Assembly: GCA_041600575.1 (NCBI GenBank)
Contig: JBFIJV010000001.1
Span: 33 to 64,032, forward strand
Source of the DNA: Gammaproteobacteria bacterium
Lineage (GTDB): Bacteria > Pseudomonadota > Gammaproteobacteria > Eutrophobiales > Eutrophobiaceae
Reading direction: 5' to 3'
Length of the DNA stretch: 64,000 bases
Positions 17,393 through 62,508 of the stretch are shown here, one piece after another. The number at the start of each line of letters is the position of its first letter. The stretch's first letter is position 1. The notes beneath the pieces were generated by a model, which was not told the DNA's origin, ran no database searches, and worked only from the letters and a program-made list of their open reading frames with translations. Made by a program: the position numbers and the translations under genes.

Positions 17393-17616
17393 GTGCTTTA
17401 TGTAGAGCAACAGGAGGCAGGGTTCCGCTTTCTGTTATCTCTTCAACAACAGAGGGCAGACTTTGCGCCTCACTTACTTATGATCTTGGTGGCAGCAGTG
17501 GCGGGACAGGAAAGTCAAAGAAATACCTAAAATTACAGCGCAACCTCCAAATTGAAGAACGCGACATACAAGAAATAACAACAATACTTATTGCATCAGG
17601 AATCCTAGACGAATGA
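17389..17616 (+). CDS. Small hypothetical protein (75 aa)
   Basis: Coupled ORF. Confidence 0.35.
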   Translation: MSALCRATGGRVPLSVISSTTEGRLCASLTYDLGGSSGGTGKSKKYLKLQRNLQIEERDIQEITTILIASGILDE

Positions 17617-20600
17617 GCCTAACAAATTGTTTAAAAAGTTTAGACATCAGCAAAGATACTGCTAAAGACGTAAAACGTATTGCACGTTCTTACCGAGAAG
17701 ATGACGGAATGAGTCCCAACGACGCAAGCCTTGCCGCAGCAAAAGACATTCTCTCCGATCTTATTGATTACAGAAATCAAATCTCAGAAGAAATTGAAAG
17801 CAAAGGGCATGAAGCCCCTCGTAGGTCAGAAGCAGCAGTCAAGGCAGACTTGACAGAAGGAGGCAGGACGGCTAAATTAAGCCGTAAGTGGCCTATTGAT
17901 CCCAGTGATGATATCCCTACCGCCTTGGTTAAAACGATTGGCGCGGATATGGATAACTTTGTAACAGAGCTGTCCGACAAGAAGTCGATGGCAGACATAG
18001 CGAACGACGTTGCTAAGCAAGTTAAGGTGCAGGAAGCTGCACCATTACCTAATCCAGACCAGACTCCTCAGACAGCGCAAGCAGCGTTTCTAGAAAAGAG
18101 GCGCAACAAGCCAGATATGCCTTATGAATACTGGCTGACAATGACGGATGAAAACGGCAAAGAGATTGTGGATGATTTGCATGTCCCGATGACGGCGACT
18201 GTTCTTGAGTTCAAGCGCGAAGGTGTTATTGAGATTGACATAAGCTCCTTTAAGAAAGGGAATGGCGGCAATGTCATATATCAAGTTGTTGCTAACTACG
18301 CGCTTAATAACGGTTTAAGATTTCAAGGTGATAGGCAGGGCTTGTCTCCGATAGCACGAATTAGACGTACTGAGCAGATGTTAGCGGCGGCAGCAAAAGC
18401 TGGAACAACTACCCATTTACTGCCGCACCATTGGCAGTATCAAGGCGAAACCGGAACTGAAAATGTTGAAGGTGTTGTTAGGCTAGACTGGAGAAGAGAC
18501 GAAGACAACCACAACTTAAAAGAAATGGTTAACTCGCTGACAGACACATGGCACAATTTAGTGCCTTCACTGAACGAGATGACCTACAATTTTGAAACGG
18601 AGAGGTTTGAGAATGAAGAAGGACAACTTATCGAAGACGGTGTATTCGAAGACGCAGCCGAGTCTGCACGAGCTAATGAACTCCAGAAAGAAGGAGGGGG
18701 AAGCCTTGGTTACACAGATGAACAAGGCATACCAGCAGGGAGCGGCTCGCTTAAAAGAGCTGTATATTTCAAAGCAGCCAGAGGTTTACAAGGACAAGCC
18801 GCTGAGCTACTTTCGGGGCAAGATGATAGGCTCGCCAAATATGTTCGGGGATTTAAAAAGAATACAAAAGACGGAAAAATAAGTTACTCCCGCAAAATCA
18901 CTCCTGAAAAAACAGAAGTCATACCTAACTTCTCTATTATCACTCCATCAATTGTCAGTCAGTCGTCACAAGACGTACAGCAGGTTGATGGTTGGTTGAA
19001 GTATCTGCAGAACAAAGGCGTTAAGAAGGAAGAAATGGAAGCGCTCGGACTGACTGCTGAGGAACTATCGTCACTTTCTTTGGAATTATTTAAAAACAAT
19101 AAAAAATACAAAAACCCAAAGCAACTATCTAAAGAAGATCTGCTTGAGTATATTGACAATCAGTCAAATCAACTCAAATTTATCGAGGAGTTTAGAGTTG
19201 GGAACAGATCTTCTTATTCCAATATGATTCTTCCAGAAGATTACGGTAAAAAAACCGGATATTTTGTCTCTGTGGTTGACTCACCTAAAGCGCCTTGGCA
19301 AAAATTGCCCACTTTTACAGAGCATTTTATTGGCGAAAACGATGATAGTTATAATAATTTTGCTCATTACAGAGCAACAATTAGGGAGGATGCTAACAGC
19401 AAGCGGTTTCTATTAATAGAGGAGCTGCAATCTGACGGACACCAACGCGCACGAAAGAACGGTTATGAGGATAGAGACCTCTCATCGGAAGATGCAGACC
19501 TCACCAGCAAAATGACAGCGGTTGGCGAAAACATACAAGACATTGATGTGTTTCTGGAAGACACGCACAACCAATTAGATTCGCTGATTGATAGCGCTAC
19601 GAATGATTTTGATTTTGAATTAAAAAAAATGTCCCTTAAGTTTGTTTCTGGATTAAAAAAGAATGATAGCTACAACGAAAAGGTTCAGAAAGTATTCAAA
19701 AACAGAAGCCTTCCGGACGACGAAGGGCTGTTTAATTTAATGAAGGAATATCTTGATACCTTAGATAAAGCGACTAAAAAAATTGATGAGGCGTTCAATA
19801 AGGCAGGTATAGACCTAAGAGTTGCAACTTCTAACAACAGCAGATCCATGACCCATAAACCAGAACTATTTGGTTTAATGCCTTTAGAAACAGAAGCCAT
19901 TTTAACCCAAGGCAGTATCTGGGATATAACGTCTCTCACCGAGATATCAAAAGCTATTTCTGGTGCTACTGAGAGCGCTAACTTAAATATGCGCAAAGTT
20001 CCGTATATGCCAATGAAGGTTGGTTGGGAAATGTTTTTGATAAAGAAGGCGATGGTATTTGCCAAGAAAAACGGATTAAAACAAATACGCTTCCCTGCTA
20101 CTTATGAGCAAGTTGATCTCATAGAAAAATGGGGGGGCACCGAACTCCCCGGAATGGAAACTATAGCCAAAAGATACACTGAAAAACTACCCCGACAAAT
20201 AAACAGTCTTATTAAAAAGTATGGAAGCAAGGTTGAAAAAACAGAATTCAAAGTAAAAGAAAAAGACAGTATATTGAAGAAACGTCAGGCTGAAGATATT
20301 ACCTTGATATATCAGAGCGCTGATCCTGTGATAATTAAAGTCCCAATAAGAGCAACAAGTATTATTCATTCAATCGAAGGTGACAGTTTAGTCCCTATGA
20401 CAGTGCAGGAGTATGACGAAACCGAAATTGGAGAAGAGGTTTATGTTGTTGGATATACAACCAAGGATTCTCAAACGAATGGCAGTACATCAAGAGCTAT
20501 AAAAAGGCACTTCTCTAACACCACTACATCAAACAATATACGAGATATTGTCGGTTACGATCTGTATGAGCAAAGCCTCTTCGCAGAAGATAGGAGTAGT

Positions 20601-23423
20601 GCAGAGAATTTAATGGTTCACCTTAAGCGTGACATGGAAGAAGAATATCAGCGGGCACTTGATTTAATAAATAATCCACCAAAGAAAACAGACGAACTAA
20701 ACTCATTCGAGATAACACCTGAGCTTGAAGAGTACATCGACAACATGACGATGTTCTCTCGTAAGATGAATGAAGGAACGTCTTATGACAGGAATAACCA
20801 AGTTGAGCCTGAAGTTTTCTACCACGACACAAGCCAGCCTACTGCATCAGAAAGCGCGTCAATAACTTCACGAGTAAAAGAGTTTATTGATGGCTTCCGC
20901 TACGAAATGCAGGATAAGCATATCTATTTGAAGCGTGCTCAAGAATTAGCTGGCGACGTATCTGAGTCAGAAGATGCTTATGGAGCAGAGTCACTCTGGC
21001 AGGGCAAAGCCGGTGAAGTTATTGGTCAGTTTGGTAAATCACAAGCCGAGCCAATCATGAAGAAGATCGGTGAGACTGGCATGGAACTAGAAGAGGTTGA
21101 GCGTTGGTTGCACGCACGCCACGCTGAAGAAGCTAACCGCTATCTTCGTGGTATAAACCCTAACCGTAACGATAACGATGCATTGTCAGGTATGACTGAC
21201 CAAGAAGCATTGCAAATACTGGCCACTAATCAAGGGAATGAGGCATTACAAGAAGTGGGCAGCATGATTGATAATTTAAACAACAGTCGTCTCGATATGA
21301 TGCTGGAATACGGACTGGTTGATGCAGATTCTGTTGCCGCATGGCGAGCGACTTATGAGCATTACGTTCCATTGCGACGCGAGGAGCAGGAAGATCTGAT
21401 CTCCGCACGTGCATCCGGTTTTAATATTCGTGGCAAAGAAAGTCGTGAGCGTTTAGGTTCCACGCTGCCTGTTACTAATATACTGGCACACACCTTTGCT
21501 CAGTACGAGAACAGCATTGTTCGTGGTGAAAAGAACATTGTTGGTCAGGCGCTGTTTAATTTTGCGCAGGCCAATAACTCTTCTGGCTGGTGGACTATCG
21601 ATGAATTGAAACAGGTCGGCAAAGTTAAAGACGGTGAGGTGCAGTGGTTTAATGATCCGCGTGAGACCGACGAAGAACTGAATGTTAAAATAAACGGCAC
21701 AACCCATCGTATTCGTTTTAACAGGAATAATAAGAGCGCTATTCGCATACTCAAGGCAATGAAAAATCTTGAGAGCAAGGAGATGAATCCATTCATCAAG
21801 ACGTTGCTGGGTATTAACAGGTTCCTGAGTAGCATTAATACATCTTTCTCACCTGAGTTTATTATCTCCAACTTTACGCGTGACTTGCAGACAGCCGGCT
21901 ACAATCTGGGCGACACTGAATTATCCAGTATGGAACTAAGTGTCATGAAAAATGTACCGGGCGCAATTAAAGGCTTGAAACAGAATATTCGTGGTGACAG
22001 GACTGATACCGCGTGGTCTCAGTGGGCAGAGCGATTCCGTTTGGCTGGAGGCAAGACCGGTTGGATAGACAATATGAACAATATTGAAGACCGTCACTCA
22101 AAATTAGAGAAGCAATTACAGCGAATCAGAAAAGGCAAAGCGCCTCGAAGTGTATTTATGTCTTTTATTCACATGGTTGAGGACTACAACTCTATTGCTG
22201 AGAACGCAGTGCGTCTCGCCGCATTTAAGACAGCCGTAGAAAACGGCGTATCAGAGCAAAAAGCAGCGATTTTAGCCAAGAATTTGACCGTAAACTTTAA
22301 TCGCAAGGGAATGTCAGGCTCGACAATGAACGCGCTGTATCTCTTCTATAATGCCTCTATTCAGGGTTCTACGCGTATGCTACAAGCAATGGTCAAATCA
22401 AAGAAAGGCCGTATGTTGGCAGCGGCCACGATAGGTCTCTCAGTGGGCTTGGATATTATGAACCGCGCTATGTCTGGAGACGACGATGATGGTGAAAACA
22501 TCTATGACCAGATACCGGATTACGTGAAAAGCCGTAACTGGATAATAATGGGTGAGAAAGAGCCGATAGTTAAGATCCCATTGCCTTGGGGTTACAACGT
22601 TCTTCATATCATAGGACAACAGATTGGCAAGGGATTCACAGGAAAGGACTTCAATGCGCTGGACTCCACCGGTGTTGTCATGAAAGGCATAATCGATTCG
22701 TTCAACCCGGTAGGTAGCGGCACGTTGTTACAAACCGTATCTCCGACAATTGGTGACCCTGCTGTGATGATAGCTGAAAACAAGAACTGGGCAGGTCAAC
22801 CACTTAAACCAGACCAATTGCCGTTCGGAGTTAATAAACCTGAGTACCAAATGCATTGGCGCAAACACAACGACACTATTATGAAAGACGTGTCGAAGTT
22901 CCTCAACGACTTGTCAGGTGGCGACAGTGTGCGGCCGGGCGCGATAAACATCTCGCCAGAATGGATCGAGGTCTTTAGTGACTTCGCAACAGGTTCTGCT
23001 GGCCGGGTAGTATCAAACACATTTTCAACAGCACGCAAAGCCGTTGCTGGTGAAGAGTTGCCTACTCAGGAAATCCCTTTTATACGCAAAGTGACCGGGT
23101 TTGATTCAGAGCGACAGTTACAGTCTCGCTACTACGAACGCGTTGAGGATATTCAATATCACCGTAAACAGCTTGATGCGGCCAAGGTTAGCAGGGATAA
23201 AGAGGTTTCTAAGCAGTTACTGTCAAATCCACGCACTCAATTACTTAAGCTGGAAAAAGACGTGTCAAAGGCGCTCAAGAAGCTAAGTCAAAACAAACGT
23301 AAGATTGAGCAGTCCAGCCTGTCAGATAAAGACAAAGAGAAGCGTGTCGAAAAAATCGACAGCATAATTCGAATGTACCAAGCGCGATTTAGCCGGCTGT
23401 ACTCTGAACGCGTCAAGTCTTAG
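17613..23423 (+). CDS. Giant protein (1936 aa) of unknown function. Likely a virion-associated or injected protein
   Basis: Uninterrupted 5.8-kb ORF at the distal end of the late operon. No Walker A and no T7/N4-type RNAP motifs found. Confidence 0.6.
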   Translation: MSLTNCLKSLDISKDTAKDVKRIARSYREDDGMSPNDASLAAAKDILSDLIDYRNQISEEIESKGHEAPRRSEAAVKADLTEGGRTAKLSRKWPIDPSDDIPTALVKTIGADMDNFVTELSDKKSMADIANDVAKQVKVQEAAPLPNPDQTPQTAQAAFLEKRRNKPDMPYEYWLTMTDENGKEIVDDLHVPMTATVLEFKREGVIEIDISSFKKGNGGNVIYQVVANYALNNGLRFQGDRQGLSPIARIRRTEQMLAAAAKAGTTTHLLPHHWQYQGETGTENVEGVVRLDWRRDEDNHNLKEMVNSLTDTWHNLVPSLNEMTYNFETERFENEEGQLIEDGVFEDAAESARANELQKEGGGSLGYTDEQGIPAGSGSLKRAVYFKAARGLQGQAAELLSGQDDRLAKYVRGFKKNTKDGKISYSRKITPEKTEVIPNFSIITPSIVSQSSQDVQQVDGWLKYLQNKGVKKEEMEALGLTAEELSSLSLELFKNNKKYKNPKQLSKEDLLEYIDNQSNQLKFIEEFRVGNRSSYSNMILPEDYGKKTGYFVSVVDSPKAPWQKLPTFTEHFIGENDDSYNNFAHYRATIREDANSKRFLLIEELQSDGHQRARKNGYEDRDLSSEDADLTSKMTAVGENIQDIDVFLEDTHNQLDSLIDSATNDFDFELKKMSLKFVSGLKKNDSYNEKVQKVFKNRSLPDDEGLFNLMKEYLDTLDKATKKIDEAFNKAGIDLRVATSNNSRSMTHKPELFGLMPLETEAILTQGSIWDITSLTEISKAISGATESANLNMRKVPYMPMKVGWEMFLIKKAMVFAKKNGLKQIRFPATYEQVDLIEKWGGTELPGMETIAKRYTEKLPRQINSLIKKYGSKVEKTEFKVKEKDSILKKRQAEDITLIYQSADPVIIKVPIRATSIIHSIEGDSLVPMTVQEYDETEIGEEVYVVGYTTKDSQTNGSTSRAIKRHFSNTTTSNNIRDIVGYDLYEQSLFAEDRSSAENLMVHLKRDMEEEYQRALDLINNPPKKTDELNSFEITPELEEYIDNMTMFSRKMNEGTSYDRNNQVEPEVFYHDTSQPTASESASITSRVKEFIDGFRYEMQDKHIYLKRAQELAGDVSESEDAYGAESLWQGKAGEVIGQFGKSQAEPIMKKIGETGMELEEVERWLHARHAEEANRYLRGINPNRNDNDALSGMTDQEALQILATNQGNEALQEVGSMIDNLNNSRLDMMLEYGLVDADSVAAWRATYEHYVPLRREEQEDLISARASGFNIRGKESRERLGSTLPVTNILAHTFAQYENSIVRGEKNIVGQALFNFAQANNSSGWWTIDELKQVGKVKDGEVQWFNDPRETDEELNVKINGTTHRIRFNRNNKSAIRILKAMKNLESKEMNPFIKTLLGINRFLSSINTSFSPEFIISNFTRDLQTAGYNLGDTELSSMELSVMKNVPGAIKGLKQNIRGDRTDTAWSQWAERFRLAGGKTGWIDNMNNIEDRHSKLEKQLQRIRKGKAPRSVFMSFIHMVEDYNSIAENAVRLAAFKTAVENGVSEQKAAILAKNLTVNFNRKGMSGSTMNALYLFYNASIQGSTRMLQAMVKSKKGRMLAAATIGLSVGLDIMNRAMSGDDDDGENIYDQIPDYVKSRNWIIMGEKEPIVKIPLPWGYNVLHIIGQQIGKGFTGKDFNALDSTGVVMKGIIDSFNPVGSGTLLQTVSPTIGDPAVMIAENKNWAGQPLKPDQLPFGVNKPEYQMHWRKHNDTIMKDVSKFLNDLSGGDSVRPGAINISPEWIEVFSDFATGSAGRVVSNTFSTARKAVAGEELPTQEIPFIRKVTGFDSERQLQSRYYERVEDIQYHRKQLDAAKVSRDKEVSKQLLSNPRTQLLKLEKDVSKALKKLSQNKRKIEQSSLSDKDKEKRVEKIDSIIRMYQARFSRLYSERVKS

Positions 23424-47840: not shown

Positions 47841-48278
47841 ATGACTCGTATGAGTTTAGCAAGCGCACCTTCAAAGAAACCGACGGTGATGGAGTATATG
47901 ACAGTGAGTAGTTTAGCTTTGCCCGAATCAGTTACACGTGAGTTAGAAGAGCAACAGGTCAGCTCATTAGCAAAGAATATTATCGAAGTGCTGGACAAGC
48001 ATTATCCGACCTACACCGGGACATGGCACATATTAATTAACACAGATCCAAATGCCGGCGTTGTCCAAGTACGCAACTTGCGCATCAGTGGGACGATGGG
48101 TTTTCAAATTCCTATCACGTGGTTACATGACCATGACACGATGATGAAGTTAATCAAAAACAATGGCGGCGAATTGCTTGAACGTTTCCGTCTTAGTCGT
48201 GAGAGAGGCGCTTCTGTTGAAGACCAATTGAACGATGCTAAACGAAACTTTAAAGGCGAATTAATCCACGATGAGTGA
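47841..48278 (+). CDS. Hypothetical protein (145 aa or shorter)
   Basis: ORF between terL and the portal gene. Confidence 0.4.
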   Translation: MTRMSLASAPSKKPTVMEYMTVSSLALPESVTRELEEQQVSSLAKNIIEVLDKHYPTYTGTWHILINTDPNAGVVQVRNLRISGTMGFQIPITWLHDHDTMMKLIKNNGGELLERFRLSRERGASVEDQLNDAKRNFKGELIHDE

Positions 48279-50541
48279 CAAGTTCCAGTCTGCTGGGCGT
48301 ACCACAAACCAAAACAAGAATGATGAAGAAGTAACCGTCGCGGAAAATAGCGCTCCCGAATTGATGGATGACTTTGCCGACGCAACACTTATCAACGAAG
48401 CTATTAACACCCAGAAGAGCGAAGCTGAAGATAGTGAGTGGTTAGCTTTGGCGCGTGACGCGTATCAATCATCCACTGATTACTTTGATGCAAGCATAAG
48501 GAAAGGCGTTGAGAGGAATCTCGCGCATTTCAATATTCAGCACGCACCGGGTTCGAAATACCATTCTGACTTATACAAATACCGGGCGAAAGGGTTTCGA
48601 CCTAAAACACGTTCAGTCATTCGTCAGAACGAAGCAAAAGCGGCTGTCGCCTTATTCTCAACCAGCGACGTAGCACACGTCAGCGCAGAGAATGATTCAG
48701 ACATGAACATGCAAATGAACGCGGAAATAAACGAGAAGCTATTGCAGTACCGTTTAACAAACACAATGGATTGGTTCCAGACAGCCATTGGCGCGTATCA
48801 GGACGCACTGACAACCGGTGTCTGCTTATCTCACCAGCATTGGGATTACGAGGAAATCGTAGACGAGATAGAGGAAACACAGGAGGGCTTGTTGGGTGCT
48901 GAGCCGGTAATGCGGGAAGTCAGAACTATTGTGCGTGACACTCCAGCAGTTGACTTACGCCCTATTGAAAACTTGCGCTTCAGCCCGTCGGCTGACTGGC
49001 GCGACCCGGTAGGCACATCGCCTTATCTGGTTGATTTAATGCCAATGGAAATTGGCGCGGCCAAGCAAATGATTAAGCAGGGCCAAAAAACAAACATACC
49101 TTGGAAGGAAGATTTAGGCGAAGAAGTTTGGAAGCGCGGCATGACTAACGAATACGATTCAGTTCGTAGTATGCGCGAGAGAAACAAACAGGATTCAAAA
49201 GACCAGCAACATCAAACGTCTGACTTTGATACAGTTTGGATTCATCGCAATATTATTCGCAAAGAAGGTATTGATTATATTTTTTACACGCTGGGTGTTT
49301 ACCAGTTGTTATCAGACCCTATCCCATTAGTTAAAGAGTATGGCTTTCTAAAACTGGGTGAACGTCCTTACAAAATGGGTAAGGCCGTCATTGAGACGCA
49401 CAAGGTCTACCCTGAATCGTTGGCCGGGTTGGGCGCATCGCTACAGCACGAAGCTAACGATATTAATAACCAGCGACGTGACAACGTGCAGTTGGTTCTT
49501 AATCGACGCTACTACGCACGACGCGGCGCACAGATAGACTATCGCAGCCTGGTTAAAAACATTCCCGGCTCTGTTACTGAAATGGATAACATAACGAACG
49601 ATATTCGGAGTGATGCACCACCGGAAATAACCGGTAGCGCGTACCAAGAACAAGACCGGGTGAACATGGACTTTGATGAGTTGATGGGAACCTTCTCAAC
49701 GTCGTCTATCGGAAGTAATCGTCAACTGAATGAAACGGTTGGCGGCATGGAGATGCTGTCTGGCAGCGCTAATGACGTAACGGAATATCAGCTCCGGACT
49801 TTTGTACAAACATGGGTTGAGCCTGTTTTGAAACAGGTGATACAAATGGAGCAGTTCTACGAAACCAATGAAGCTCTGTTGCAGTTGATGGGTGATAAAA
49901 TCAAATCATTGGTGCGGTATAACAAGGGTGAAATAACCGACGCGCAGTTACAAGGCAACATGCTGGTACAAATCAATGTTGGTTTTGGCGCAACGAATCC
50001 GAAGCAAAAAATCGACAAGCTGGCAATGGGTTTGAATTACGTCATGCAAATGCCCGGCATGTCAGCACGCTTGAACAGTGACGAAGTAGGTAAGGAAGTA
50101 TTTGGCGCAATGGGTTATGACACCCACGAACGCTTCTTCCCACAATTAACCGAAGAACAAAAGCAAGCAGCTCAGCAACCACAAGACCCGAAGGTTATGG
50201 TTGAGCAAATGCGTGCACAAGCGAAGATGGCCGAACTCGAAAAACAACATGCAATGGACATGAAGCGCATGGAAGTCGAGGCCGCAATGAAGCTGCGCTC
50301 AATGCAACAGCAAAAAGCTATGTCGGACACAGACCATCAGGTGAAGATGGCATTGGCCGAGATGGACAAGGAAAAAGAAATGATGAATCTTGCTGCACGA
50401 CAGGAAATGTCACTGCAATCCATCAAGGCTCAGTTAGCGCAAAAGGCTATGTCCGAACGCGGCACGAACGAACGTTTCGTGGCCGAGAAAGAGTTCGCGC
50501 AGCAGCAGCCTGATGGAAATGGTTTTAGCAGCAAAACATAA
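48271..50541 (+). CDS. Portal protein (P22-like, with a long C-terminal coiled-coil barrel)
   Basis: 756 aa. Downstream of terL. C-terminal 120 aa is a Met/Gln/Ala/Lys-rich heptad coiled coil. Confidence 0.7.
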   Translation: MSDKFQSAGRTTNQNKNDEEVTVAENSAPELMDDFADATLINEAINTQKSEAEDSEWLALARDAYQSSTDYFDASIRKGVERNLAHFNIQHAPGSKYHSDLYKYRAKGFRPKTRSVIRQNEAKAAVALFSTSDVAHVSAENDSDMNMQMNAEINEKLLQYRLTNTMDWFQTAIGAYQDALTTGVCLSHQHWDYEEIVDEIEETQEGLLGAEPVMREVRTIVRDTPAVDLRPIENLRFSPSADWRDPVGTSPYLVDLMPMEIGAAKQMIKQGQKTNIPWKEDLGEEVWKRGMTNEYDSVRSMRERNKQDSKDQQHQTSDFDTVWIHRNIIRKEGIDYIFYTLGVYQLLSDPIPLVKEYGFLKLGERPYKMGKAVIETHKVYPESLAGLGASLQHEANDINNQRRDNVQLVLNRRYYARRGAQIDYRSLVKNIPGSVTEMDNITNDIRSDAPPEITGSAYQEQDRVNMDFDELMGTFSTSSIGSNRQLNETVGGMEMLSGSANDVTEYQLRTFVQTWVEPVLKQVIQMEQFYETNEALLQLMGDKIKSLVRYNKGEITDAQLQGNMLVQINVGFGATNPKQKIDKLAMGLNYVMQMPGMSARLNSDEVGKEVFGAMGYDTHERFFPQLTEEQKQAAQQPQDPKVMVEQMRAQAKMAELEKQHAMDMKRMEVEAAMKLRSMQQQKAMSDTDHQVKMALAEMDKEKEMMNLAARQEMSLQSIKAQLAQKAMSERGTNERFVAEKEFAQQQPDGNGFSSKT

Positions 50542-53660: not shown

Positions 53661-54029
53661 ATGAAGGGTGGGACAGAAATGTCCTGCCCTTTTTTTATGA
53701 TTGAAAAATGCCCAATCTGCAAAGTCAATAACCGCGCCTCTAACGGGCACGGCGCAAGGAAGGCACTATGCAATTCTTGCACACGGAAACCTTACACTAG
53801 ACACAAGAAAGAATACTGCGAGGAATGCAGCTTCGTAGCAAAGCACCGGGTTCAGCTTGATGTTGACCATGTTGATGGCAACAAGAAAAACAATGACCTA
53901 TCAAATTTAAAAACTCTCTGCGCTAACTGCCACAGACTTAAAACTCTGGAGAGTGGCGACGCATGGAATATCGGCCATAAGAAACATTTCGAAGATACGA
54001 AAATAACTTACATCGGAGAAGATGAATGA
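53661..54029 (+). CDS. HNH endonuclease
   Basis: CPIC...C..C zinc knuckle. 'DVDHVDGNKKNN...LCANCH' is the HNH core. Confidence 0.75.
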   Translation: MKGGTEMSCPFFMIEKCPICKVNNRASNGHGARKALCNSCTRKPYTRHKKEYCEECSFVAKHRVQLDVDHVDGNKKNNDLSNLKTLCANCHRLKTLESGDAWNIGHKKHFEDTKITYIGEDE

Positions 54030-54214: not shown

Positions 54215-54534
54215 TGATGATCAATAAAAAAGAAAGTCACGCTGTTATCAGCGGCAAGACCAGTGATGGTGCGCGATATATTCAAGGCGGCATTCGGTTC
54301 AAGCCTAACGGCCACCCTGTTGCCGGACAAGAGATCCCAGAGCCAATTGTCGCTGCTCCAGAAAACGTTTTGCCACGCCCTGATATCGATAACCTAGAGT
54401 CCTCGCAGTTAAACGTGAAGTCTGCAAGAGAGATTCAAAAAATGGTTGAGCGTCTCGGTGGTGAATACACTAACAAGAGAGAAGGTATTGAATTCATTAT
54501 TCAGGAAAGTTTGAAGGCTAATGACATTTCTTGA
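54214..54534 (+). CDS. Hypothetical head-tail region protein (106 aa)
   Basis: Coupled ORF. Confidence 0.4.
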   Translation: MMINKKESHAVISGKTSDGARYIQGGIRFKPNGHPVAGQEIPEPIVAAPENVLPRPDIDNLESSQLNVKSAREIQKMVERLGGEYTNKREGIEFIIQESLKANDIS

Positions 54535-55405
54535 ATTAACGCAAGAACTTTGTGATAGAGCAAATATACCAAGAGACCAGTTAACGACTGTTACCGGACT
54601 GTCCGGCGAATTAAATGTTGCAACTAACTGGATCGTCCAAGCGTACATCGATATTCAGCGTTCATATTTTGGTAGATGGAGATACTTGCATACGGAATTT
54701 TTACGCAACACTCGCGCAGCAACATTGCTGGATGCAGCGCCAGCAGTAGACGCTGGCGGCGGCTTGGTCACTATTCCAGTCACAGGGCACGCTTATTCCG
54801 CGAGTGACTACATTACTATTCGTGGAACAGGCAATTACGACGGCACTTATTTAATTGCCTCTGTCGTTGCAGCCACAAGCATTAATATTACGACAACTTA
54901 TGTTTCGGAAACATTCGCAGGAACTGAAAGAGCATTTGTTCGTGACTACGAATTTAGAACAGCAAACGCTATCAAATCTTTTGATGAAGGCTCTTTAATG
55001 TTTTATCGCAAATCTGACGGGGCAAATGAATCACAACCTTTGTTTTTTCTTGATTACGAAGAATTTAAGAAGAAAAGCGTTGATTATAGCTCCCCAGATC
55101 AGCCCGCTTATATAACGATAACACCTAGTGATAAGCTGCGATGCCATCCTGCTCCCGATGCTGTTTACACCATCGAAGCCGATGCATTTATTATCCCGGA
55201 AACCCTGTCTGTTGACTCAGACGTACCTTTATTGCCTAGTGAATTTCACATGCTTATTGTATGGAAAGCGCTTATCGACTATGCCGGATTTGAAGAGGCA
55301 GCGCCTGTATTGACGTACGCCAAAGCACGTCACGACGAACTCTATAGTGACTTACTGTGGCAGCAGAAGTTTGATAACAAACAAATGGTTGTCAGAGCAG
55401 AATAA
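54521..55405 (+). CDS. Structural protein (294 aa)
   Basis: ORF in the morphogenesis operon. Confidence 0.45.
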   Translation: MTFLELTQELCDRANIPRDQLTTVTGLSGELNVATNWIVQAYIDIQRSYFGRWRYLHTEFLRNTRAATLLDAAPAVDAGGGLVTIPVTGHAYSASDYITIRGTGNYDGTYLIASVVAATSINITTTYVSETFAGTERAFVRDYEFRTANAIKSFDEGSLMFYRKSDGANESQPLFFLDYEEFKKKSVDYSSPDQPAYITITPSDKLRCHPAPDAVYTIEADAFIIPETLSVDSDVPLLPSEFHMLIVWKALIDYAGFEEAAPVLTYAKARHDELYSDLLWQQKFDNKQMVVRAE

Positions 55406-58322: not shown

Positions 58323-58646
58323 ATGGCGCTAACAGACAACAACGCAAACGGATCATTAACGGGTGGCACTGACACGCTAATAACGGGCAATGCCGCTGGA
58401 ACGTTAATTAAAAAAGGCACGTTACGCATTACAAACAACACGACCAGCACAGTAGGTGACTTGCAATTAATTTTTGATATTGGCGCAACATCGAAAGACT
58501 TATTTAATAGCACGATTAATCCAGGCGCGTCTTGGATTAACGATGGTGACATAATTCTGAAAGATGCTACTGATTCTATTCAGGCAATCGGCACGGTATC
58601 GGTGTTTGATTATACCTGTTCATTCTTTGACGACTTCTTGAGTTAA
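58323..58646 (+). CDS. Tail protein (107 aa)
   Basis: N-terminal 'MALTD' shared with the 60816 gene. Confidence 0.4.
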   Translation: MALTDNNANGSLTGGTDTLITGNAAGTLIKKGTLRITNNTTSTVGDLQLIFDIGATSKDLFNSTINPGASWINDGDIILKDATDSIQAIGTVSVFDYTCSFFDDFLS

Positions 58647-58650
58647 GACT

Positions 58651-58962
58651 ATGGCTATCGTAGACGATTCAGTAGACACCACGGGCGTATTAAAAGCGTC
58701 TCAAGCCGAAGCCGAAGCGGGTGTTATTGATACAAAGTATTTAACGCCGTTAACAGGCAGCCAAGCAATCGCGTCGTTAGCATCAGGCGGAGAAAAAGAT
58801 TCCGGTAATAATGTTATTGGTGTTGCTAACAAGAAAACAACAGCGGGTAACTACACAACAGACGCAACCGAAAACTTAGTTACTGGCGGTGATTTTACAA
58901 TCGCAAGTGGACACACCATTACTGTCACTAGTGGTTCGTCATGGACAATAGTGGGGTCTTAA
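58651..58962 (+). CDS. Short tail fibre-like protein with the conserved N-terminal fibre motif
   Basis: 'ASQAEAEAGVIDTKYLTPLTGSQAI' parallels the 62050 gene N-terminus. Confidence 0.5.
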   Translation: MAIVDDSVDTTGVLKASQAEAEAGVIDTKYLTPLTGSQAIASLASGGEKDSGNNVIGVANKKTTAGNYTTDATENLVTGGDFTIASGHTITVTSGSSWTIVGS

Positions 58963-58963
58963 C

Positions 58964-59473
58964 ATGAGTACGATAAAAGTAGATACGATTCAAGACAGTG
59001 ATGGTCTTTACAATAAGCAGCAAGTTGTTCAGGTTGTTAATGTTACTGATGGTGCGGTTGCTACAGGTACAACAGCAATAGTAAACGATGACACGATAGG
59101 CCAGAACACAGAGGGCGACCAGTACATGTCGCGTGCTATCACTCCTAAGTCAGCAACGAATATTTTAAAGATTGAAGTGGTTATTATTGTGTCTCATTCC
59201 ATCCTAACAGCACGTAATGTAACGTATTTATTTCAAGATTCAACAGCAAACGCATTGGCTTGTGCATATAACCTCACAACGACTGCGACTGTTCCGCAGA
59301 CCACTGCTTTTTCTCATTACATGGTTGCAGGGACAACATCCGCCACGACCTTTAAGGTGAGGGCGGGGTCAAATGTGGGTGGCACGATGACTTTTAATGG
59401 TCAATCAGGCAGTCGAACACAAGGGGGTGTACTCGCATCATCAATTACCATCACGGAGTACCAACCATCATGA
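58964..59473 (+). CDS. Tail fibre/receptor-binding paralogue 1 (169 aa)
   Basis: Conserved N-terminus 'KQQVVQVVNVTDGAVATGTT' and C-terminus '...SSITITEYQPS'. Confidence 0.6.
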   Translation: MSTIKVDTIQDSDGLYNKQQVVQVVNVTDGAVATGTTAIVNDDTIGQNTEGDQYMSRAITPKSATNILKIEVVIIVSHSILTARNVTYLFQDSTANALACAYNLTTTATVPQTTAFSHYMVAGTTSATTFKVRAGSNVGGTMTFNGQSGSRTQGGVLASSITITEYQPS

Positions 59474-59979
59474 GTATCGTAAATGTAGATGACATATATG
59501 ACCGTACTGGCACATATAAAAAACAGCAAGTTGTTCAGGTTGTTAATGTTACTGATGGTGCGGTTGCTACTGGAACTACTGTTGTTGGTGCGTCTGATGC
59601 GATTATGCAGAATACGCAAGGAGATCAATATATGTCTCTGGCTATCACCCCTAAATCAGCAACAAATATATTAAGAATTGAGTCTATTATCCATTGCGCT
59701 CATTCTGTTGCTACTGCTTTTATCCTTGCAGGGATATTCCAAGACAGTATCGCGGATAACCTCGCGGTTGGGTGGGAATACTCTCACGCTGTAAATTATA
59801 ACAAGCAACTCCAAGTTGAGCATTATATGGTGGCAGGAACAACAAGTTCTACTACTTTCAAAATAAGGGTTGGCTCAAATCAAGTTGGAACAACAACCTT
59901 TAATGGTCAGGCATCATCGAGGCGGCAAGGTGGAAAACTGTGTTCCTCAATCACAATCACGGAGTACCAGCCATCATGA
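59470..59979 (+). CDS. Tail fibre/receptor-binding paralogue 2 (169 aa)
   Basis: ATGA overlap. Same conserved termini and a divergent centre. Confidence 0.6.
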   Translation: MSIVNVDDIYDRTGTYKKQQVVQVVNVTDGAVATGTTVVGASDAIMQNTQGDQYMSLAITPKSATNILRIESIIHCAHSVATAFILAGIFQDSIADNLAVGWEYSHAVNYNKQLQVEHYMVAGTTSSTTFKIRVGSNQVGTTTFNGQASSRRQGGKLCSSITITEYQPS

Positions 59980-60479
59980 GTGGATTGAATGTAGGTGACA
60001 TATATGATGTTGGTGGTGTTTATAAAAAGCAACAGGTGGTACAGGTTGTTAATGTTACTGATGGTGCTGTAGCCACTGGCACAACCGTTCTGCCTTATGA
60101 TGATACTGTCCCACAAATTACTGAGGGTGATCAATATATGACAAGGACTATCACGCCCAAGTCAGCAACTAATATATTAAAAATAGAAGTTAATTTATTG
60201 GGTACTCATACGGTCGCGAGTTTTTGGACAACTGCACTCTTTCAAGATTCTACGGCGAGCGCATTAGCTGCAACGGGGTACTATGGGGCTTCCGCAGAAC
60301 TCACGCAATGGGTTATTACGCATTACATGGCGGCGGGCACAACTTCTGAGACAACTTTTCGAGTTCGGGCGGGATGCTCTGCGGCGGGCACATTCACCTT
60401 CAATGGTGATACAGGCGTAAGAAAGTACGGTGGCGTTGCTTCTTCATCAATAACAATCACGGAATATCAACCTTCATAA
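59976..60479 (+). CDS. Tail fibre/receptor-binding paralogue 3 (167 aa)
   Basis: ATGA overlap. Same conserved termini. Confidence 0.6.
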   Translation: MSGLNVGDIYDVGGVYKKQQVVQVVNVTDGAVATGTTVLPYDDTVPQITEGDQYMTRTITPKSATNILKIEVNLLGTHTVASFWTTALFQDSTASALAATGYYGASAELTQWVITHYMAAGTTSETTFRVRAGCSAAGTFTFNGDTGVRKYGGVASSSITITEYQPS

Positions 60480-60815: not shown

Positions 60816-61760
60816 ATGGCATTAACAGACCAAGGCGACATACTACTACCGTATGGCAGTCCAACGGGCGCGGGACAGATATTAGTCAGTCAAAGCACAA
60901 GCACACATGACTGGGCGAGCAGAGGACTAAGCGGCAGACAGCCTTCGGGTCGATTAACATTAACGTCTGGAACGCCAGTTACAACTGCCGATGTAAGCGC
61001 GGCTGGAACTATTTATTTTACGCCGCATCTTGGCAACACTATTCCGCTTTACACTGGAACAGACTGGGTAATGTATGCGTTCACTGAGTTATCAGTAGCA
61101 GTATCAACCAGTGCAAACAAAGTATTCGATATATTCCTCGATTATAACGCAGGGACACCACAATTAGTTACTACTGATTGGACGAACGACACGACCAGAG
61201 CAACAGCACTTGTTTATCAGGACGGTGTGCTTGTTCAAACAGGCAATACCGATTGGCGATATTTAGGTACTGCACGAACTAAAACAGTAAGCCAAGTTGA
61301 TGATGCAGAAGCATTTAGACATCTGTGGAATTATTACAACCGTGTTGATAAGAATATGCTTGTTGAAGAACCAGCCGATACATGGACGTATACAATAGCA
61401 ACAATAAGACAGGCTAACGGAAACACAGCCAACCAATTAGATTTTGTTATCGGGGTGGCAGAAGATGTGGTTGTTGCTACTGTCAATGCAACTGCAACAA
61501 ATGCGTCGACAAATGTTTCTTATGGTGTTGGGATTGGGCTTGATAGCACGACAACGTTTAGCCAATTACACGCTAGAGTTTCATCTCCCGCTGATGGCTA
61601 TCTGCAATTTGCAGCAAACTATAAAGCACAAGTCGCAGCAGGTCGCCATTACCTGTCTTGGAATGAGTGGGCGCAAGCTGTCGGAACAACAACTTGGGTT
61701 GGTGATAACGGAGCACCACTAACTGTCCAAGCAGGTATTCAAGGGAGTATCAAATGTTAA
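60816..61760 (+). CDS. Tail protein (314 aa)
   Basis: ORF. The N-terminus resembles the 58323 gene. Confidence 0.45.
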   Translation: MALTDQGDILLPYGSPTGAGQILVSQSTSTHDWASRGLSGRQPSGRLTLTSGTPVTTADVSAAGTIYFTPHLGNTIPLYTGTDWVMYAFTELSVAVSTSANKVFDIFLDYNAGTPQLVTTDWTNDTTRATALVYQDGVLVQTGNTDWRYLGTARTKTVSQVDDAEAFRHLWNYYNRVDKNMLVEEPADTWTYTIATIRQANGNTANQLDFVIGVAEDVVVATVNATATNASTNVSYGVGIGLDSTTTFSQLHARVSSPADGYLQFAANYKAQVAAGRHYLSWNEWAQAVGTTTWVGDNGAPLTVQAGIQGSIKC

Positions 61761-62053
61761 TACATTTATTAGACCAAGCAATCAAACAAGCCTGCCCCAT
61801 TGATGGTATTTCTATCGGACGTAAAGATGACAAATCAACATGGCGTATCGACTTCAAATCTAAAGCAACACAAGCCCAAAAAGACGCTGCTCAACTTGTT
61901 GTTGATAACTTTGACATTAACGCGAAAGACCCTATTGAAGAACGCATCAAAGAATACGGCACTCCCTCAGAACAGCTTGAACGCATTATTGAAAATGGAC
62001 TTGACGCTGAACAGACAAGAGTGGCAGAGATAAAAGCGAGGCATCCTAAATGA
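61754..62053 (+). CDS. Hypothetical protein (99 aa)
   Basis: Coupled ORF. Confidence 0.4.
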   Translation: MLIHLLDQAIKQACPIDGISIGRKDDKSTWRIDFKSKATQAQKDAAQLVVDNFDINAKDPIEERIKEYGTPSEQLERIIENGLDAEQTRVAEIKARHPK

Positions 62054-62508
62054 TTAGCAACAACGGCGGTATATCAAGAGCAGCGCAGGCCGATGCAGAG
62101 GCGGGAACATCTGATAGTGCGTGGATGAGTCCTTTAAAAACGAAACAAGCCGTTGAGAATGTAGCGCATGAATACAGCGGCACACAGAACTTCAACGCAA
62201 CGACATTGACAAGCACAACCAACGCAGTCGCATGGGATGCTAGTGCCAATCAGGTTGTTTCACACACTCTAACAGAGAACACAACCTTCTCCGCACCAAC
62301 TAACTTAGTTGACGGGGCTTTCTATTCGTTAGCCATAATACAAGACTCAGGTGCAAGTGGGTACACGGTAGCTTTTAATTCCGTATTCAAATTTATCGGT
62401 GGAACAGCACCGACATGGACAACGACTGCGAGTGCAAGAGACTACATATCTTTCCGCTCTAATGGCACTAACTTGTATGAAGTTGGTCACGCTTTGGACG
62501 TAAGTTAA
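62050..62508 (+). CDS. Tail fibre-like protein with the conserved N-terminal fibre motif (152 aa)
   Basis: 'AAQADAEAGTSDSAWMSPLKTKQAV'. Confidence 0.5.
   Translation: MISNNGGISRAAQADAEAGTSDSAWMSPLKTKQAVENVAHEYSGTQNFNATTLTSTTNAVAWDASANQVVSHTLTENTTFSAPTNLVDGAFYSLAIIQDSGASGYTVAFNSVFKFIGGTAPTWTTTASARDYISFRSNGTNLYEVGHALDVS

Follow-up and report, generated by a model that had tools for sequence, protein, structure and literature searches.

Three tandem knob genes of an uncultured marine podovirus, probable separately made tail-fibre tips with a TNF-like fold

In this work we analysed a stretch of 64,000 nucleotides (nt), hereafter the window, of contig JBFIJV010000001.1 (GenBank assembly GCA_041600575.1), which derives from an uncultured marine podovirus with an SU10-like tail, and concentrated on three tandem paralogous genes near its right end (Table 1). 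In what follows a fibre-tip protein or domain is called a knob, and related loci and related proteins are designated L### and P####, respectively. A preliminary description of the sequence had presented the array as three same-strand genes joined by ATGA overlaps, with conserved ends and a divergent centre. The coordinates and the joins (stop/start overlaps at 59470-59473 and 59976-59979) were correctly given, and the products are 169, 169 and 167 amino acids (aa) long. For gene 3 the list of open reading frames (ORFs) proposes a GTG start at 59940; we took the ATG at 59976 as the start because the N-termini of the three paralogs are homologous, and their alignment begins, from there. The proteins are 57-62% identical pairwise, and by segment this identity amounts to 41-65% over residues 1-17, 76-83% over residues 18-71, 24-30% over residues 72-117 and 63-79% over residues 118-169. 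Among the shared end motifs first described, KQQVVQVVNVTDGAVATGTT and SSITITEYQPS are exact in all three paralogs, while HYMVAGTTS carries a valine-to-alanine change in gene 3 (HYMAAGTTS). The centre is indeed divergent, but it is smaller than the 60-70 aa first described: it measures about 46 aa and is split by a conserved island, LFQDS.A..LA, into two hypervariable stretches. The shared ends are not short motifs in proteins of uniformly low identity, as the flanks are 63-83% identical, and the similarity goes far beyond chance because a profile of the three proteins retrieves thousands of homologues.

Table 1. Positions in the window of the knob genes, their variable and identical stretches and the neighbouring genes
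Feature	Position	Strand	Remarks
SU10-like portal	48271-50541	+	SU10_portal match
SU10-like adaptor	54521-55405	+	SU10_adaptor match
Tail-fibre protein, 266 aa	57513-58313	+	PHROG tail-fibre families 24456 (E 1e-24) and 21412 (E 4e-15)
Adaptor, 103 aa	58651-58962	+	Weak PHROG tail-fibre match to C-terminus; stop 1 nt before knob gene 1
Knob paralog 1, 169 aa	58964-59473	+	N-terminal peptide MSTIKVDTIQDSDGLY, then TNF-like jelly-roll domain
Tract of 26 nt identical in all three genes	59030-59055, 59536-59561, 60042-60067	+	Zero matches expected by chance
Hypervariable stretch 1, paralog 1	59177-59227	+	Residues ~72-88: end of strand C, C-D loop, start of strand D
Hypervariable stretch 2, paralog 1	59261-59314	+	Residues ~100-117: strand E, E-F loop, start of strand F
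Knob paralog 2, 169 aa	59470-59979	+	ATGA overlap with paralog 1
Knob paralog 3, 167 aa	59976-60479	+	ATGA overlap with paralog 2
Downstream protein, 105 aa	60495-60812	+	PHROG 9114, function unknown; follows last knob gene

The fold of the knob was approached with an AlphaFold2 model of paralog 1, built from 120 homologues, which is all-beta (predicted local distance difference test, pLDDT, 91.6; predicted template modelling score, pTM, 0.85). The model is a ten-strand sandwich like that of tumour necrosis factor (TNF) and superposes on the C-terminal domain of the Chlamydia protein Pgp3: the 18 best PDB matches returned by Foldseek are all chains of this domain, and the match with 4jdn has an E of 2e-9, an rmsd (root-mean-square deviation) of ~2.4 A over ~148 residues and TM (template modelling) scores of 0.74 (query) and 0.87 (target). 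TNF-like lectins occupy lower ranks. The relationship is also visible in sequence, as Pfam PF05475 (the Pgp3 C-terminal domain) is matched by 49 of 120 close relatives at E<=0.01 (best 3.6e-7), and a profile of the family searched against the PDB gave 4jdn as its sole, weak match (E 0.15). Ribosomal protein L1, the lone match of the three-sequence profile in the PDB sequence search, was rejected as spurious. The family is large: the three-protein profile found 4,747 proteins in a collection clustered at 90% identity and, in a library clustered at 50% identity, 10,355 representatives at E<=1e-3 and 2,861 at E<=1e-30; none of the members so matched has an informative name in the libraries and records searched. 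Among 50,697 phage records there was no nucleotide or protein match to the window paralogs, and a more typical member of the family gave two marginal matches only. Paralog 3 has a weak match to a PHROG 'minor tail protein'.

In relatives of 142-2343 aa the ~150-aa domain is nearly always the last one and ends a few residues from the C-terminus, the exceptions to this C-terminal single-domain rule being multi-domain chains (of the P0165, P0169, P0170 and P0176 type, see below). The parts that precede the domain vary and comprise collagen repeats, as in the collagen-stalked P0036, Collar-type shafts, T7-like fibre N-termini and others. The stand-alone subclass, to which the window genes belong, starts with a conserved peptide, MS[TG][IL]xVDxIxDxxG. 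Knob-bearing fibre proteins were also observed in contigs of 160 kb-1.8 Mb from metagenome-assembled genomes of Alpha- and Betaproteobacteria (L121, L123, L130, L131, L142); these genes presumably belong to prophages, and part of the family presumably has proteobacterial hosts.

The paralogs vary where the family as a whole varies, the variability among the three proteins tracking the family-wide entropy (Spearman 0.60, p 4e-16). In the C-D and E-F loops the paralogs have not one identical position, the family entropy of these loops being 2.7 and 3.2 bits, respectively, and part of the G-H region is hypervariable too; the first hypervariable stretch has its equivalents at offsets of +506 nt in paralog 2 and +1012 nt in paralog 3. 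The three proteins do not differ in strands A (residues 21-28) and H (residues 160-166), and conservation extends to the B-C, D-E and F-G loops. These three loops share one pole of a TNF-like jelly roll with the two ends of the chain, the opposite pole being occupied by the loops C-D, E-F and G-H. Since the canonical strand topology puts C-D, E-F and G-H opposite the chain ends, we place the variable loops at the far pole. Conserved ends and a divergent centre in the sequence thus most likely correspond to a core and a shaft-facing pole that are conserved and to loops at the far pole that vary, which is the usual layout of a receptor-binding head. A distal position on the fibres of relatives and localised hypervariability, two marks of a fibre-tip or receptor-binding protein, are found for the knob. 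The same observations bear on a structural role without receptor binding, in which the knob trimer would act as a cap or decoration (for example to stabilise the end of the fibre, or on the head or neck) and its loops would drift or evade recognition by the host or the immune system. The fold does occur in proteins that are not adhesins, namely Pgp3 and the jelly-roll capsid proteins that appear among the weaker Foldseek matches. However, the domain is consistently last on fibre-like proteins, collagen-stalked ones included, knob and Collar head replace each other on one and the same shaft (see below), and the closest structural relatives of the domain include the head of a phage receptor-binding protein and glycan-binding TNF-like lectins (PMC4742702). 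In addition, the hypervariability is limited to certain loops while the remainder is under strong purifying selection, a pattern typical of receptor-binding tips, and we consider a cap or decoration improbable.

Pairwise alignment of the three genes and estimation of nonsynonymous (dN) and synonymous (dS) divergence in each segment revealed constrained flanks and a divergent centre. Synonymous sites are saturated in every segment, the proportion of synonymous differences (pS) being 0.47-0.84 and dS well above 1 outside the short N-terminal peptide. Where dS is finite, the flanks have a dN/dS of ~0.01-0.16; dN amounts to 0.8-1.1 in the centre, where the saturation of dS makes the ratio unreadable for positive selection. 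The triplication is old, because synonymous sites are saturated, and every copy is under purifying selection, because flank dN/dS is low. The three ORFs are intact and all three have kept the nearly invariant residues of the family, a set of properties that decay does not fit. It is therefore very improbable that the array consists of redundant duplicates, with one functional copy and neutral leftovers of unequal recombination that are heading for loss. Gain and loss of knobs do occur in the family, and two loci illustrate them. In L001 (10510-10644) an ORF of 44 aa that follows the single knob matches the knob profile at E 3e-13 and looks like the remnant of a lost copy. The second knob of L002 (10501-11017) is a mosaic, its middle being 98.8% identical to the first (partial) knob of L086 and its 3' end 97.5% identical to the next one; L002 and L086 (1-784) come from the same assembly (GCA_022599615.1), and either recombination between tandem copies or a collapse in assembly would account for the mosaic.

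The tract of 26 nt that is identical in the three genes reaches 47 nt (codons 19-34) between genes 1 and 2. It was not found in 85 other related loci, so that there is no family-wide nucleotide signal at this place, and in its simplest reading it is probably a short gene-conversion tract; it also offers a substrate for unequal recombination. Diversification by a diversity-generating retroelement, of the Mtd type, was rejected for the centres, which are only 23-46% nt-identical and in which the differences fall on all kinds of base; no search aimed at a reverse transcriptase was made.

The three genes belong to a tail-fibre module: they lie beside SU10-like tail genes and PHROG tail-fibre genes, all on the plus strand. 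Downstream of the SU10-like adaptor the genes for proteins of 702, 266, 107 and 103 aa, the three paralogs, the gene for a 105-aa protein and more fibre-like genes succeed one another on this strand. The terminase of the window is 40-45% identical to terminases of isolates. The gene for the 266-aa protein comes directly after the one that follows the SU10-like adaptor, and its product, which has an internal tandem repeat of ~32 residues (GIETLATADQTG.EIK..YE.E.NAFTDAQFTKL), is probably the shaft that carries the 103-aa adaptor. In the latter the C-terminal ~58 residues are conserved (nt ~58786-58959, ...NLVTGGDFTIASGHTITVTSGSSWTIVGS followed by the stop codon). This arrangement is a cassette that accompanies the stand-alone subclass in otherwise unrelated phage backbones and that comprises an upstream module, 1-3 knob genes and a small downstream protein. 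The module, of ~50 aa, forms the end of the upstream gene (...NLVTGGxFTIASGHTxTVxSGxxWxIVG and stop codon), usually 0-1 nt before the knob start, and terminates proteins of 309 aa in L001, 374 aa in L002, 363 aa in L003, 614 aa in L087 and 64 aa in L095. We propose, on the basis of these sequences, that the C-terminal module of the adaptor would be the docking site for the knobs.

A comparison of two collinear T7-like phage contigs, L107 and L003, which share ~75% nt identity, bears on this proposal. In L003 (8908-11563) a shaft that ends in the module is followed by three separate knob genes, whereas in L107 (3008-4513) the shaft and one knob form a single ORF of 501 aa without the module. 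The shaft-knob junction of L107 retains part of the peptide, and 33 residues are exactly those of the paralog 2 stretch DVDDIYDRTGTYKKQQVVQVVNVTDGAVATGTT. The natural fusion shows that the knob forms the distal end of that fibre, and the comparison favours the view that a covalent link may be replaced by the module together with the N-terminal peptide.

The downstream member of the cassette, represented by the 105-aa protein of the window, is a partner of 95-113 aa that follows the last knob in L001, L003, L086, L087, L090, L107 and many other loci. The 105-aa protein is composed of an N-terminal part, MSITVNNPEAL..GIST..GVITGWPDSLPALTQEL, and a C-terminal helical module, KRKAEYPEIGDQLDALW...VKYPKG; in its model (pLDDT 82.7) a small alpha/beta domain is followed by three C-terminal helices. 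The N-terminal domain of the partners (MSITxNNPEALxWK..GIST..GVxTGWPxSLPxLTQ) is found only beside knob genes, and the C-terminal module (KRxxEYPxIEDQLDxI...KxKYPKG) is found also in small proteins that follow other tip genes; one of these, in L087, has an N-terminus in common with a Pfam Phage_tail_APC protein. By analogy, the 105-aa protein is a possible fibre-assembly chaperone. Other small tips, which start with an N-terminal peptide of the same kind as the knobs (MSIIKVNEIQN..., MSKLVVAEIENAAG...), were observed in L090 (4195-4704), L095 (4618-5187) and L087 (5814-6338 and 6610-7236). They carry either a knob of a divergent subfamily or another beta-rich domain, and each is followed by its own ...KYPKG protein; the system of peptide and partner protein appears to serve several tip folds.

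Copy number was compared across related phages in a census of 225 loci, collected with an iterated profile, in which 133 complete arrays were counted. These contain one, two, three or four knob domains in 119, 8, 5 and 1 cases, respectively, and the number differs even between the collinear L107 and L003. In several arrays (L095, L097, L098, L090) each knob has its own downstream protein. In neighbour-joining trees the window trio groups with the single knob of L001, the L003 trio is spread across two subclades, and the tree of the centre segment is star-like; no conserved sets of orthologous A, B and C chains were found in these trees. Positional orthology between the window and L003 arrays, hinted at by the N-terminal peptides, was not upheld by the trees, as the third knob of L003 lies in another subclade.

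Several proteins contain more than one knob domain. P0165, of 478 aa, consists of three complete domains in one chain and is encoded in two contigs (L152 5001-6437 and L153 4086-5522), and chains of two domains are P0169 (L154 4132-5106), P0176 (L156 1993-2952) and P0170 (L157 4001-4981). In these double and triple forms the linkers are 12-14 aa long and there is almost no N-terminal extension. The protein encoded directly before each two-domain chain examined ends in one knob, so that the domains add up to three. This count suggests a rule of three, which is, however, not upheld by the census, nor by the upstream fibres of L156 and L152, which have their first 182 residues in common and end in a knob and in a Collar head, respectively. 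Because knob and Collar head alternate on this fibre, the upstream knob is an independent head. P0166, of 1412 aa, is among other representatives with up to four matched stretches.

These data bear on how the three knobs are assembled. The preliminary description suggested a heterotrimeric tip or the diversification of a host-range cassette. In a heterotrimer one each of paralogs 1-3 would form, as in C1q, a pseudo-threefold knob whose three faces differ and make up an asymmetric composite binding surface. Such an assembly would account for three tandem coupled genes with a single downstream protein, and it is sterically plausible, since the paralogs do not differ in strands A and H, the trimer interface of TNF-like folds. 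The natural chains with three or two knob domains joined by short linkers, and the total of three domains reached when a two-domain chain follows a single-knob protein, point in the same direction. The position of both chain ends at one pole of a TNF-like jelly roll would disfavour a coaxial stacking of fused domains. However, the census shows that knobs do not always come in threes, in several arrays every knob comes with a downstream protein of its own, no orthologous set of three chains was found, the window and L003 trios not being positional orthologues, and L107 manages with one knob on a shaft that is presumably trimeric. The sum of one and two domains may be a coincidence, given the exchange of knob and Collar head between L156 and L152. 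Finally, the L003 array is uncoupled, with gaps of 14 and 34 nt; since ATGA coupling is common in the window operon and absent from this array, it says little on co-assembly. We regard a heterotrimer as rather unlikely, but it is still a serious rival to separate homotrimers.

We propose that the three genes encode separately made distal tips, or knobs, of a podovirus tail fibre, a reading to which we assign a probability of roughly 0.85. The claim that they are fibre or receptor-binding genes is well supported by the TNF-like, Pgp3-like fold, by the C-terminal position of the domain on the fibres of relatives and by the SU10-like tail-fibre module; the suggested diversification of host range fits as well, since the paralogs vary at sites that are hypervariable in the family and copy number differs between collinear relatives. 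A heterotrimeric tip, on the other hand, is not the reading that the data favour. According to our proposal, the three genes would be co-transcribed in a late structural operon; a scan of the plus strand inside the array detected neither sigma-70 promoters nor terminators, which is weak evidence as the phage may use other promoters. Each knob consists of an N-terminal peptide of ~17 residues and a TNF-like jelly-roll domain of ~150 residues, of the type that in Pgp3 is a trimerisation domain, and would trimerise, probably with the help of the single 105-aa protein. Each trimer would then use its N-terminal peptides to bind the conserved module at the C-terminus of the 103-aa adaptor, as suggested by conserved gene adjacency and by the natural fusion, and the hypervariable C-D and E-F loops, with part of G-H, would bind the receptor, most likely a surface glycan, at the far pole. 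Most likely each paralog would form its own homotrimer, so that a virion would show up to three alternative tips, which would either compete for one site on different fibres or share one adaptor trimer in the manner of the lactococcal tripod. Either arrangement would widen or hedge host recognition. Homotrimers are favoured because 119 of the 133 complete arrays have a single knob, because arrays of two and four exist, frequently with a downstream protein for each knob, and because there is no conserved triplet orthology.

Several points weigh against this proposal. At E<=0.1 the three window paralogs have no Pfam match, and they have no significant PHROG match; no close homologue was found in cultured phages. 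The 105-aa protein has no Pfam match and no PDB fold match at E<1, so that neither homology nor a fold links it to known chaperones such as those of the Pfam families Phage_tail_APC and Caudo_TAP, Pam3 gp25 or Mu Tfa. The poles of the loops were derived from the canonical jelly-roll topology and not from the coordinates of the model. Three knobs with one downstream protein and ATGA coupling would also suit a 1:1:1 complex, and natural chains of two or three knobs are more easily pictured as intrachain pseudo-trimers than as stacked homotrimers. Taking these points together, we give the whole explanation, with separate homotrimers, about even odds. That the three paralogs act as one unit, either as the C1q-like heterotrimeric knob or as a hetero-tripod in which an adaptor trimer holds three different knob trimers, is a tentative possibility; in that case each tip would present three specificities at once, and chains of the P0165 type would be fused versions of this unit.

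Among characterised proteins, Pgp3 (PDB 4JDN, 4JDO and 6GJT; PF05475) is the best structural match of the knob model, and its sequence relation to the knobs is weak but specific. Pgp3 is an elongated trimer in which the TNF-like domain is C-terminal and the N-terminal part has motifs of trimeric viral proteins (PMC10367112). It differs in being only 18-20% identical to the knobs and in being a secreted bacterial virulence protein with a coiled-coil stalk and not a part of a virion, whereas the knobs consist of the knob domain alone behind a 17-residue peptide and are triplicated. On a tentative reading, the very large phage knob family may be the source of the Pgp3 C-terminal domain. For the receptor-binding head of the lactococcal phage Tuc2009, too, the closest folds reported are those of Pgp3 and a TNF-like lectin (PMC4742702). 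The BppL proteins of Tuc2009 and TP901-1, carried on a BppU tripod, resemble the knobs as small, separately encoded receptor-binding proteins that follow the logic of adaptor plus knob. BppL has ~165-175 aa, and the C-terminal part of BppU, which is encoded upstream, holds three BppL trimers by their N-terminal segments. However, BppL has no detectable sequence similarity to the knobs and is absent from the top 50 Foldseek matches, and its system is a siphovirus baseplate for a Gram-positive host, with a single gene and identical trimers, whereas the window has three divergent genes in an SU10-like podovirus. The cyanophage Pam3 has a fibre, gp24, with a TNF-like domain, followed by a small chaperone, gp25, in which the N-terminal domain is variable and binds the client and the C-terminal one is helical and serves trimerisation (PMC9608196). 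The two-part layout of gp25 resembles that of the 105-aa protein, for which no sequence or fold match to solved chaperones was found; gp24 differs from the knobs in being encoded by a single gene and in having a glycine-rich distal domain and an alpha-helical docking domain.

Outside the phage world, the globular head of complement C1q, one of the TNF/C1q heterotrimers, is made of A, B and C chains that are encoded by three tandem paralogous genes and adopt the jelly-roll superfold, and that form one heterotrimeric head on a stalk. The likeness lies in the three tandem paralogs and, within the knob family, in the collagen stalk of P0036; the difference is that knob arrays have no conserved three-chain orthology and vary in copy number. 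Among tail-fibre systems, gp38 of phage S16 attaches to gp37 (PMC9608196), and tail-fibre exchange underlies broad host range (PMC12028318). The T4-like gp38/gp37 pair and the phages with several tailspikes resemble the system proposed here in that small modular distal proteins, bound non-covalently to a conserved shaft, set the host range. They differ in their folds, and in that the knobs have near-equivalent N-terminal peptides and one apparent docking module. Phages with multiple receptor-binding proteins usually have a specific attachment site for each of them.

A few other features of the window were recorded. A second tip-like set, made of ORFs of 314, 99 and 152 aa, lies just downstream of the knob cassette (60816-62508). 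At its C-terminus (...EYGTPSEQLERI...IKARHPK) the 99-aa ORF is similar to the helical module of the 105-aa protein, and the N-terminal motif of the 152-aa ORF, AAQADAEAGTSDSAWMSPLKTKQAV, recalls the one in the 103-aa adaptor; the ORFs at 58323 and 60816 both start with MALTD. Further upstream, an ORF of 1936 aa (17613-23423) contains the Pfam domains LPD37 and LPD38 and matches the C-terminal ~850 residues of PHROG families of 2,800-3,900 aa with function unknown; an N4-type virion RNA polymerase was ruled out for it by these domains and by the SU10-like portal and adaptor. An LPD38 protein also lies upstream of the fibre genes in L157. Between the head and tail genes an ORF of 122 aa (53661-54029), cysteine-rich at its N-terminus, contains an HNH-like motif, DVDHVDGNKKNNDLSNLKTLCANCH, and probably encodes an HNH endonuclease; a terminator-like hairpin (53663-53692) overlaps the start of this ORF.

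Duplication of receptor-binding tips followed by diversification of their loops is a known theme, which would not greatly surprise a specialist. What is new is the fold of an abundant family, a split-tip cassette with an apparent plug-in peptide, and a series of fused, split, double and triple forms. With 10,355 clusters at 50% identity, the knob domain is among the commoner fibre tips of environmental phages and is almost absent from cultured ones. The family ties Pgp3, a virulence factor of Chlamydia, to phage fibre tips. In their split multi-copy form the knobs are a natural system for plugging in alternative tips, and the fused, split, double and triple knobs are a ready experimental series on how phages multiply their specificities. 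The fold, the position on the fibre and the logic of the cassette make host-range prediction and the engineering of tip swaps possible for uncultured marine podoviruses.

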